A stretch of 64,000 bases of DNA from the NCBI RefSeq assembly GCF_054482595.1, contig NZ_CM137008.1. One strand, written 5' to 3'. Shown in pieces: positions 6,001 through 9,000 of the stretch. The position numbers are program-made. Numbering within the stretch: position 1 is the first letter of the stretch; the number at the start of each line of letters is the position of its first letter.

Positions 6001-9000
6001 TTGCGACCCACCATCATCTCAATCAGCGAATCTTCGGTCAGTGATGCCACTTCGCGCTCAGCAATAAATTGTCCGTCACGAAAAACGGTAACGTCATCAC
6101 AAATCTCGAAGATTTCTTTCATGCGGTGGGAGATATAGACAATACCGCGGCCTTGCGATTTCAGCTCGCGGATGACGCGGAACAGGGATTCGGTTTCGGT
6201 ATCGGTCAGCGCATCGGTCGGTTCATCCATAATGATGACTTTCGACTCAAAGCTCAGCACTTTGGCGATTTCAACCATTTGCTGGTCACCGATGGAAAGA
6301 TCGCCCACCAGCTTGTCGCTTTTAAAGCGCAGGTTAAGTTTAGCCAGCAATTTATCCGCTTCGGCATACATGGTTTTCCAGTCAATTTTGCCAAAGCGAT
6401 TAACAAACTCACGACCGAGGAAAATGTTTTCGGCAATGGTCAACTGCGGGATCAGGTTCAGTTCCTGATGGATAATCCCAATCCCGGCTTCCTGGGAAGA
6501 TTTCGGCCCGGTAAATGTCGTTTCTTTCCCCAGCCATAAAAGCGTGCCGGCATCGCGAGTATAGATACCAGTAAGCACTTTCATCATGGTGGATTTACCC
6601 GCGCCGTTTTCGCCCACCAGCGCCATCACGCGGCCCGGATAGACATTTAACGCAGCGCCCGAGAGGGCTTTTACGCCCGGGAAGGCTTTATCGATGCCTT
6701 TAAGCTGAAGTAATGCTTCCATGACGGCCTCAGAACGTCACGCCAGCACAGAGAATGATATTCGCATACGGAGAACATTCTCCGCTGCGAATTACCGCCT
6801 GACTTTCTGCGGTTTGTTGTTTGAATTGTTCATGCGTGGTGTAACGAATTTCAATGGTATTTCCCTGGTGTTTTTGCAGCTGCTCAAGGTGAGTGAGCAA
6901 CGTTTCGTGGAGTTGCGGATTATGTTGTTTGATCTCTTCCGCGATAATGGCCGCCTCGACCTGCATTTCATTTGTGACGACGCCCAGCACCTGCATAAAA
7001 GAAGGTACACCCTGGGTTAATGCCATATCGATACGCGTTGTACTTTTGGGGATGGGTAACCCAGCATCACACACCACCAGCGTATCGGTATGTCCCAGAC
7101 GGGAGATCACCGATGAAATATCAGAATTAAGAACGGTGCCTTTTTTCATTTTTTTCTCCATCAGCGAAACGTTTCGCTGACCCGCAGTTTAATCCTGACT
7201 GAGTTGGGAAAACCATCGTGACGTTACGGAAATGTGATCAACCTCGAAACGTTTTACATGGTGATTAACCATGAAAACAAAAACGCCCCCTTATGAAGAA
7301 AGGAGGCGTCTGGCGTTAGATTTCGACCTGAGTACCCAGTTCGATAACCCTGTTTGGCGGGATTTCAAATTGATCTGGTGCACGCAGCGCATTACGTTGC
7401 AGCAGCAAGTACAGCTTGCCGCGCAGACGCAAATACCACGGGCGTTTGCCGAGGATCAACGACTCATGCGACATAAAGAAGGAGGTTTCCATCATCCGGC
7501 AACTTAATCCTTCCAGACCGCAGCGGTGGAAAACTTCTTCCACGTTTGGCGTTTCTCGCCAACCATAACTTGCCACCACGCGCCAGAAAGTGGGCGACAG
7601 TTGTTCAATCTGTACCCGACGGACGTTATGGACATATGGCGCGTCTTCGGTGCGCAGAGTTAACAGAATCACCCGCTCATGCAATACCTTGTTATGTTTG
7701 AGGTTATGCATCAGCGCAAAGGGAATGACGTTGATTGCACGCGACATATACACCGCGGTCCCGGGCACGCGAACAGGCGGTGATTTCTCCAGCGAAGCAA
7801 TCATCGCTTCCAGAGAGTTACCATGTTCATGCATCCGCCGCAGCAAGCGGAAACGCTCGCTCTTCCAGGTGGTCATCACGATAAACATCACAGTACCGAG
7901 GCTCAATGGCAACCAGCCGCCGGAGAGCAGTTTATCGAGGTTAGCGGTGAACAATGGAATATCGACACAAAGGAAAGCAATCAGGATCAGCGCAACAAAA
8001 TACTTATTCCAGTGCCAGTTCTGACGTGCCACGGTAGTCGAGAGAATAGACGTCAGCACCATGGTTCCGGTCACCGCAATCCCGTACGCCGCCGCCAGGT
8101 TGCTGGAGTGCTCAAAGCTGACAATCACAATCACGACCGCGACATAGAGCATCCAGTTCACAAACGGAATATAGATTTGCCCTGACTCCATTTCGGAGGT
8201 GTGAATAATGCGCATCGGCGACAAATATCCCAGACGTACCGCCTGACGCGTCAATGAAAAGACGCCAGAGATAACCGCCTGCGAGGCGATTACCGTCGCC
8301 AGTGCGGCGATGATCAGCAGCGGGATCAGCGCCCAGTCCGGTGCCAAAAGGAAGAACGGGTTCTTAATCGCTTCCGGGTTCTTTAACAACAGCGCTCCCT
8401 GGCCGAAGTAATTAAGAGTTAAGGAAGGTAATACGACAGTGAACCACGCCAGACGAATAGGGAACTTACCAAAGTGTCCCATATCAGCATACAGCGCCTC
8501 GACCCCCGTAATCGACAGCACCACTGCCCCTAATGCAATAAAAGAAACCGTTTTGTATTCAAGGAAGAAATGCACCGCCCACATCGGATTCAGCGCATGC
8601 AGCACTTCCGGGTTAGCAATAATGCTACGTAACCCCAGTCCTGCCAGAATCAAAAACCAGGTCAGCATGATCGGCGCAAACAGCTTACCGACCATAGCCG
8701 TGCCATGCTTTTGAATCATAAATAATAAAGTGAGAACGATAATTGAGAGGGGAACTATCCAGGTATCCAGCTGCGGGGCGACGATTTCCAGACCTTCAAT
8801 GGCTGACATCACCGAAATAGCGGGTGTTATGACGACTTCACCATAGAAAAAACTGCCGCCGATTAGCCCCATAATCACCAGCATTGATGTGGTTCGCGCC
8901 GACGTATTACGCCCGGCAAGCGACATCAACGTCAGGATCCCCCCCTCACCGGCGTTATCTGCCCGCATCACGAAGGTGAGATATTTAATGGAAACCACAA

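Follow-up and report, generated by a model that had tools for sequence, protein, structure and literature searches.

The upstream in-frame ATG of Escherichia coli rbsD overlaps the RbsR operator and is probably not the translation start

Translation of rbsD very probably (about 95%) begins at the second of two in-frame ATGs, at position 7149 of the window, by which we mean the whole 64,000-nucleotide stretch of DNA that was analysed, and yields a 139-residue protein that starts MKKGTVLN. In the same reading, the palindrome in front of the gene is the operator rbsO, the upstream ATG is a by-product of the packing of this operator against the ribosome-binding site, and the codons that would encode an N-terminal MEKK belong to the 5' untranslated region. 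The 139-residue start of rbsD is already known and, as a preliminary description of this DNA had judged, the case is an ordinary one, in which the textbook E. coli rbs promoter-operator region stands before the known RbsD. What we set out here is the evidence that separates the two ATGs and the way in which the false one appears to have arisen.

The window carries E. coli O157:H7-type DNA, with the rbs operon on the minus strand. A sequence search with the 631 bases around the rbsD site gave 100% identity to E. coli O157:H7 TR01 and found these bases in 5,411 of 5,426 complete E. coli genomes, and rbsD with its upstream region was 99.5% identical to K-12 derivatives. ORF calling returned a minus-strand series of 143, 501 and 321 amino acids downstream of kup, whose own ORF ends at 7316. 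RefSeq names kup, rbsD and rbsA at this locus, rbsA being the 501-amino-acid ORF, and the position and length of the 321-amino-acid ORF fit rbsC. With these two ORFs directly after it on the same strand, rbsD is the first gene of an rbsDACBK(R)-type operon, and a terminator-like hairpin after kup is the upstream boundary of the rbs regulatory region. We take the E. coli K-12 rbsD product to be the 139-residue D-ribose pyranase of UniProt P04982, and the rbsDACBKR promoter-operator region is reportedly covered by Bell et al. 1986 and by Mauzy & Hermodson 1992. From its identity with the characterised E. coli protein, the product encoded in the window is predicted to be a ribose pyranase (mutarotase). 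The features of the site, in the direction of transcription, are as follows.

7281-7311, minus strand: intrinsic-terminator-like hairpin and T-run after kup (12-pair stem, then TTGTTTT)
7243-7258, no strand: candidate RbsR-like box O2, TGTAAAACGTTTCGAG, centre 7250.5 (inverted repeat common to rbsO; conservation)
7233-7248, read on the minus strand: putative CRP-like site TTCGAggttgaTCACA, centre 7240.5, about -61.5 from the predicted transcription start
7186-7191, minus strand: candidate -10 hexamer TAAACT of the rbs promoter, predicted from the conservation of TAAACT/TACACT
7161-7180, no strand: rbsO, 20-bp perfect palindrome TCAGCGAAACGTTTCGCTGA, the primary RbsR operator (unique in the window; identical to crystallised DNA)
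7163-7178, no strand: 16-bp core of the operator, AGCGAAACGTTTCGCT, conserved (unchanged in 79 of 80 Enterobacteriaceae loci)
7159-7161, minus strand: upstream in-frame ATG, start of the 143-amino-acid ORF, judged a non-start (without Shine-Dalgarno; triplet often out of frame in relatives)
7156-7159, minus strand: Shine-Dalgarno core GGAG of the second ATG (anti-Shine-Dalgarno duplex -6.4 kcal/mol)
7150-7155, minus strand: A6 spacer between Shine-Dalgarno and start codon, a homopolymer of variable length (direct reading)
7147-7149, minus strand: rbsD start codon, the second ATG (RefSeq CDS start; MKKG conservation; profile position 1)
6730-7149, minus strand: rbsD CDS, D-ribose pyranase, 139 amino acids plus stop, 420 nt (NF008761 and PDB 3e7n matches)

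On the minus strand the sequence around both ATGs is TAAACTgcgggTCAGCGAAACGTTTCGCTGATGGAGAAAAAAATGAAAAAAGGC, which reads, in order, GCTG, ATG (A at 7161), GAG, AAA, AAA, ATG (7149-7147), AAA, AAA and GGC. The longest rbsD ORF begins MEKKMKKG, as the preliminary description had it, and occupies 6730-7161 of the minus strand (143 amino acids). The palindrome had been said to end right at the first ATG; the adjacency stands, and it goes further than mere abutment, since the final base of the palindrome (7161) is also the A of that ATG and the two overlap by this one base. The run of T at 7150-7155 of the plus strand contains exactly six, which fixes the span from the second ATG through the operator at 7147-7180, where 7148-7181 plus or minus 1 had been given. 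A second run of six T, at 7141-7146 of the plus strand, corresponds to two lysine codons.

As a Shine-Dalgarno sequence we counted complementarity to the 3' end of 16S rRNA located 5-9 nt before a start codon. The ATG at 7149 has such a sequence: GGAG(A) stands before it with a 6-nt spacer and an anti-Shine-Dalgarno duplex of -6.4 kcal/mol, in line with the earlier proposal that codons GAG AAA AAA look like the ribosome-binding site of the second ATG. At the first ATG the duplex amounts to only -0.5 kcal/mol, and the preceding 20 nt are operator sequence.

We then scanned the site across Enterobacteriaceae, taking one genome per species, and obtained 80 loci in which RbsD is 86-99% identical. 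The start of rbsD reads ATG-AAR-AAR-GG (MKKG) in all 80. One locus has a single base changed in the 16-bp operator core, and the counts for the upstream triplet cover the 79 species in which the core is identical. In these 79 loci the core is followed by N-N-TGG(A/G)G, and a Shine-Dalgarno sequence is present in every species (GGAG in 65, GGGG in 14), with a gap of 6-7 nt to the ATG in 59. Where E. coli has the first ATG, 66 species have GTG, 11 have ATG and 2 have CTG. This operator-adjacent triplet does not share the rbsD frame in 50 of the 79 species, three of the in-frame cases contain a stop codon, and 52 of the loci lack any upstream start that stays in frame without meeting a stop. Between the triplet and the rbsD ATG lie 11 to 19 nt, with changes that are not multiples of three. 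Indels of this kind, which do not keep the frame, are typical of non-coding sequence.

Frame changes of the same kind occur within Escherichia. In Escherichia sp. MOD1-EC7003 the spacer is A5 and the upstream ATG reads MEKK-stop. Among complete E. coli genomes, searched with 85-87-nt queries that count only variants in this exact sequence background, A5 was found in H22 and UTAK-18 and A7 in C1, and in all three the upstream ATG is shifted out of frame. In the two of these annotations that were examined, H22 and C1, RefSeq annotates an intact 139-amino-acid rbsD from the second ATG. These A5 and A7 variants could conceivably be homopolymer assembly errors, and we treat them as supporting and not decisive.

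Protein profiles and solved structures point to the same methionine. The NCBIfam D-ribose pyranase equivalog NF008761 scored 222.3 bits (cut-off 93), with profile positions 1-139 of 139 aligned to residues 5-143 of the 143-amino-acid ORF, and PF05025 (RbsD_FucU) scored 156.9 bits (cut-off 25), with positions 1-138 of 138 on residues 5-142. Among structures, Salmonella RbsD (3e7n; E = 9e-79) was crystallised from a construct of three tag residues followed by MKKG, and Bacillus subtilis RbsD (1ogc) starts MKKH, its residue 1 aligning to residue 5 of the 143-amino-acid ORF. Comparison with curated N termini had been proposed as a check on the start, and position 1 of NF008761 and of PF05025, 1ogc and 3e7n all begin at the second-ATG Met.

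RefSeq places the rbsD start at window position 7149 in both O157:H7 TR01 and K-12 C600. In a collection of 15 billion proteins, the 139-amino-acid RbsD is found on at least 1,000 contigs and the 143-amino-acid form on 111, the latter a minority consisting of GenBank accessions with submitter annotation. The suggestion that this start was worth fixing in annotation is moot, since RefSeq and the curated family models already have 139 amino acids, with 143 in some GenBank records. Elsewhere in the window tnaA behaves likewise, with a longest ORF of 476 amino acids in which the family profile starts at residue 10. No rbsD entry appears in the TetRP start-site tables from tetracycline-inhibited ribosome profiling (PMC4909307, supplementary tables) or in the TRAINSPOTTER N-terminomics supplementary tables (PMC13245402), probably because the operon is repressed without ribose.

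These data bear directly on the possibility that the first ATG (7161) is a real or second start, in which case Escherichia would produce an RbsD of 143 residues, extended by MEKK, either instead of the 139-residue protein or together with it. The first ATG does open the longest ORF, the triplet is an in-frame ATG in four of the five Escherichia loci, and the 143-amino-acid product is present in GenBank on its 111 contigs. We nevertheless consider this reading very unlikely. The first ATG is without a Shine-Dalgarno match, the MEKK extension is not conserved outside Escherichia, three E. coli genomes as well as Escherichia sp. MOD1-EC7003 break its frame and yet keep the gene, and the second Met is where both the family profiles and the solved structures begin; the 143-amino-acid GenBank calls, being the expected product of a longest-ORF rule, are not independent evidence. 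Weak initiation without a Shine-Dalgarno sequence at the Escherichia first ATG, which is in frame and on the predicted mRNA, is likewise very unlikely, and there is probably no initiation at all at this codon. The second ATG, which the preliminary description had preferred as the start of a 139-amino-acid product, is the one on which the Shine-Dalgarno sequence, the 80-species comparison, the A-run variants, the profiles, the structures and RefSeq agree.

The identity of the palindrome rests on a crystal structure. The 20-mer TCAGCGAAACGTTTCGCTGA is a perfect 10+10 inverted repeat with no spacer and a central CG, and it occurs once in the 64-kb window even when up to two mismatches are allowed, with 0.00 occurrences expected by chance. 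RbsR has been co-crystallised at 2.1 Å with the 30-mer GTGGGTCAGCGAAACGTTTCGCTGATGGAG (preprint, bioRxiv 10.1101/2025.04.02.646877), and the 20-mer in the window is identical to the centre of this oligonucleotide. Because the same sequence lies inside the rbsO oligonucleotide crystallised with RbsR, the palindrome at 7161-7180 is rbsO, the known operator of the LacI-family ribose repressor RbsR. At three mismatches, nine RbsR-box matches were found elsewhere in the window against 4.5 expected, for example at 6895-6908 inside rbsD; as their number is within chance expectation, we dropped them as candidates for further RbsR boxes.

The palindrome also gives the rbs 5' RNA a predicted 6-9 bp hairpin at its 5' end, the size of which is set by the exact transcription start, and this hairpin is what would favour a palindrome that works mainly at the RNA level, as a 5'-terminal structure that governs translation or the stability of the mRNA, instead of serving as a DNA operator. 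We regard this as highly improbable: the DNA of the palindrome was crystallised bound to RbsR, the invariance of the 16-bp core, in which compensatory changes are absent, argues for protein recognition of the sequence and not for pairing, a near-copy (O2, below) lies upstream of the promoter, in DNA that would not be transcribed, and the fold z-score of the operator RNA is only -1.84. An added RNA role beside that of the DNA operator is possible. As a basis for choosing between the two starts we rejected RNA structure in either direction, since the accessibility of GGAG varies with the length of coding sequence folded: in an 82-nt fold GGAG is paired with CUCC at 7104-7101, and a 72-nt fold leaves it largely unpaired. 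For the first AUG to fall within the operator hairpin, the transcript would have to begin at 7180 or further upstream.

How the first ATG may have come about is suggested by the bases at the edge of the operator. Only the five Escherichia loci possess the two outermost base pairs that bring the palindrome to 20 bp. Between the operator core and TGGAG these loci carry GA; in the majority of other genera the two bases are AG, and in a smaller number AA, AC or GG. The Escherichia GA makes the outer pairs symmetric (TC...GA), so that a palindrome of 16 bp becomes one of 20 bp and GTG becomes ATG. In the mechanism that we propose, RbsR on rbsO, just downstream of the -10-like hexamer, would block transcription initiation, while the Shine-Dalgarno GGAG stands directly after the operator and the six-A spacer happens to put the Escherichia upstream ATG in frame. 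The MEKK codons would then draw their A from the outer operator arm and TG-GAG from the Shine-Dalgarno sequence (its 5' flank and core), the remainder being the A-rich spacer. Judged from the alignments, this packing accounts for every conserved feature observed, and no coding role is needed. We can give almost no credence to a conserved regulatory mini-ORF or decoy start at the upstream ATG or GTG, at which ribosome occupancy would tune rbsD initiation: an NTG does directly follow the operator in 79 of 79 species (ATG or GTG in 77) and, where out of frame, opens very short ORFs such as MEKK-stop or VEQENK-stop, but its conservation is explained without a start, since its TG is the 5' flank of the invariant TGGAG/TGGGG block. 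Moreover, its first base may be G, A or C, it is not preceded by a Shine-Dalgarno sequence, and the length, frame and peptide of the mini-ORFs are not conserved, some extending far into rbsD out of frame.

The position of the rbs promoter is predicted from conservation. In 65 of the 80 species TAAACT or TACACT occurs, in each case 6-7 nt before the core (measured to the A of AGCG), and from this conserved -10-like hexamer the transcription start is predicted at about 7178-7180, which would be just inside the operator; RbsR bound there would occlude it. A sigma-70 consensus scan of 7100-7340 called no promoter, as is expected of an activator (CRP)-dependent one, for which such a scan is uninformative. 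The transcription-start tables of PMC3415461 have no rbsD entry, and a literature search for a mapped rbsD transcription start or primer extension returned nothing relevant. The CRP-like site has two mismatches to TGTGAN6TCACA, for which 25 matches were found in the window against 26 expected, and its GATCACA half is invariant across the aligned species. It is therefore the conservation and the position of the sequence that would point to a CRP site at 7233-7248, the match to the consensus being at chance level.

O2 was first detected as an inverted repeat shared with rbsO, and it overlaps the weaker left half of the CRP-like site. Its centre lies 80 bp upstream of the rbsO centre in the window and 78-80 bp upstream in all 80 loci. 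The AAACGTTTCGA part of the box is invariant. Outside Escherichia O2 reads (A/T/C)GCGAAACGTTTCGA; the Salmonella or Enterobacter version is AGCGAAACGTTTCGAC, and the Enterobacter type is identical to the rbsO core at 14 of 16 positions. In Escherichia the left arm is degenerate and TGTAAAACGTTTCGAG matches the rbsO core at 11 of 16. A CRP site alone cannot explain the conservation of GCGAAA in O2, because these bases are not part of the 22-bp CRP footprint. According to one paper, the annotation of the rbs operon includes a single RbsR site (PMC3505978). A tentative reading, which we think doubtful, is that the rbs promoter of Enterobacteriaceae might be under two RbsR operators, rbsO over the start and an auxiliary GCGAAACGTTTCGA box 78-80 bp upstream, with RbsR also excluding CRP; in Escherichia one arm of the auxiliary box would have degenerated (TGTAAAACGTTTCGA) and rbsO would have acquired two more symmetric pairs (16 to 20 bp), a change that would have created the in-frame ATG. 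If this were true, the spurious start codon would be the footprint of a lineage-specific rebalancing of operator strength. O2 may already be listed in RegPrecise or in Laikova et al. 2001, and as a second operator it is a lead and not a result.

The choice of the rbsD start has little importance beyond annotation hygiene, in that gene callers working by the longest ORF would reproduce the 143-amino-acid call. It offers a teaching example of regulatory DNA that, packed against a ribosome-binding site, creates a false start codon, and of how a start question is settled without experiments once a few dozen relatives are compared and the frame is seen to change with a homopolymer spacer. The rbsO/RbsR pair is employed in synthetic biology, where construct design should heed that the native operator ends one base inside an ATG, directly before the Shine-Dalgarno sequence.

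The K-12 rbs locus is the nearest known system, being the same locus with the same 139-amino-acid RefSeq start and the same operator sequence; the O157-type window differs from K-12-type loci by single bases just 5' of the operator (CTGCGGG here, CTGTGGG in the K-12 type), and there is no difference of substance. Generic longest-ORF over-extension likewise involves an in-frame upstream ATG without a Shine-Dalgarno sequence and a few added codons; rbsD is unlike it in that the cause of the extra ATG can be named, namely the outer arm of an operator beside TGGAG. RbsR and PurR form sister clades (PMC4052901), and rbsO resembles the operators of the LacI/GalR family, especially the PurR box, in being a palindrome with a central CG step and a AAACGTTT core, and probably also in lying over the promoter or transcription start, where the bound dimer would block RNA polymerase. 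It differs from them in a specific GCG/CGC flank and in being packed directly against a Shine-Dalgarno sequence, with one base in common with an adventitious ATG.

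The perfect 20-bp palindrome at rbsO, the operator of the ribose repressor RbsR (window 7161-7180), was restricted to Escherichia when compared with other Enterobacteriaceae rbsD loci (L008-L082); across these loci the palindrome was 16 bp, except in Silvania, where it was 18 bp. One sequence difference, GA in Escherichia versus AG in most other genera, accounts for both the longer palindrome and the upstream ATG that had been judged a false start for rbsD.

In longer RNA folds, the Shine-Dalgarno core GGAG at 7156-7159 was predicted to pair with a CUCC inside the rbsD coding sequence, a prediction that varies with the length of the RNA segment folded:

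7101-7104, CUCC partner of GGAG, in rbsD codons 15-16 (ATC TCC), from RNA fold prediction

We also observed a block of the form G-N-TGGTTTT (window 7209-7217, minus strand, GATGGTTTT) that is strongly conserved between species. Relative to the predicted rbs promoter it sits near -35, although its match to TTGACA is poor.

Elsewhere in the window, the minus-strand ORF with a 660-bp gap upstream was identified as the tryptophanase TnaA (TIGR02617, 1010 bits). Within this gap, TGTGAATCGAATCACA at 56916-56931 is a perfect CRP consensus, which is presumably the known CRP site of the tna promoter. The longest tnaA ORF encodes 476 amino acids (55130-56560, minus strand), and the tryptophanase equivalog profile begins at its residue 10; this ORF is probably an over-extension produced by longest-ORF calling, of the same kind as that at rbsD.

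Between kup and the rbs operon, an imperfect inverted repeat, TTTACATGGT / ACCATGAAAA (7253-7277; 5-nt gap, 90% complementary), was placed between a second RbsR-like box and the kup terminator, and its conservation was already absent in another E. coli locus (L003). A 78-aa ORF on the plus strand (7271-7507) runs antisense over the kup terminator and 3' end and is probably spurious.

Each of the 80 Enterobacteriaceae loci (L003-L082) conserves the second RbsR-like box (7243-7258), which lies 78-80 bp upstream of rbsO. Its sequence is TGTAAAACGTTTCGA in Escherichia and GCGAAACGTTTCGA in the non-Escherichia loci. The left half of the CRP-like site overlaps this box. According to one paper, the rbs operon is annotated with a single RbsR operator (PMC3505978).
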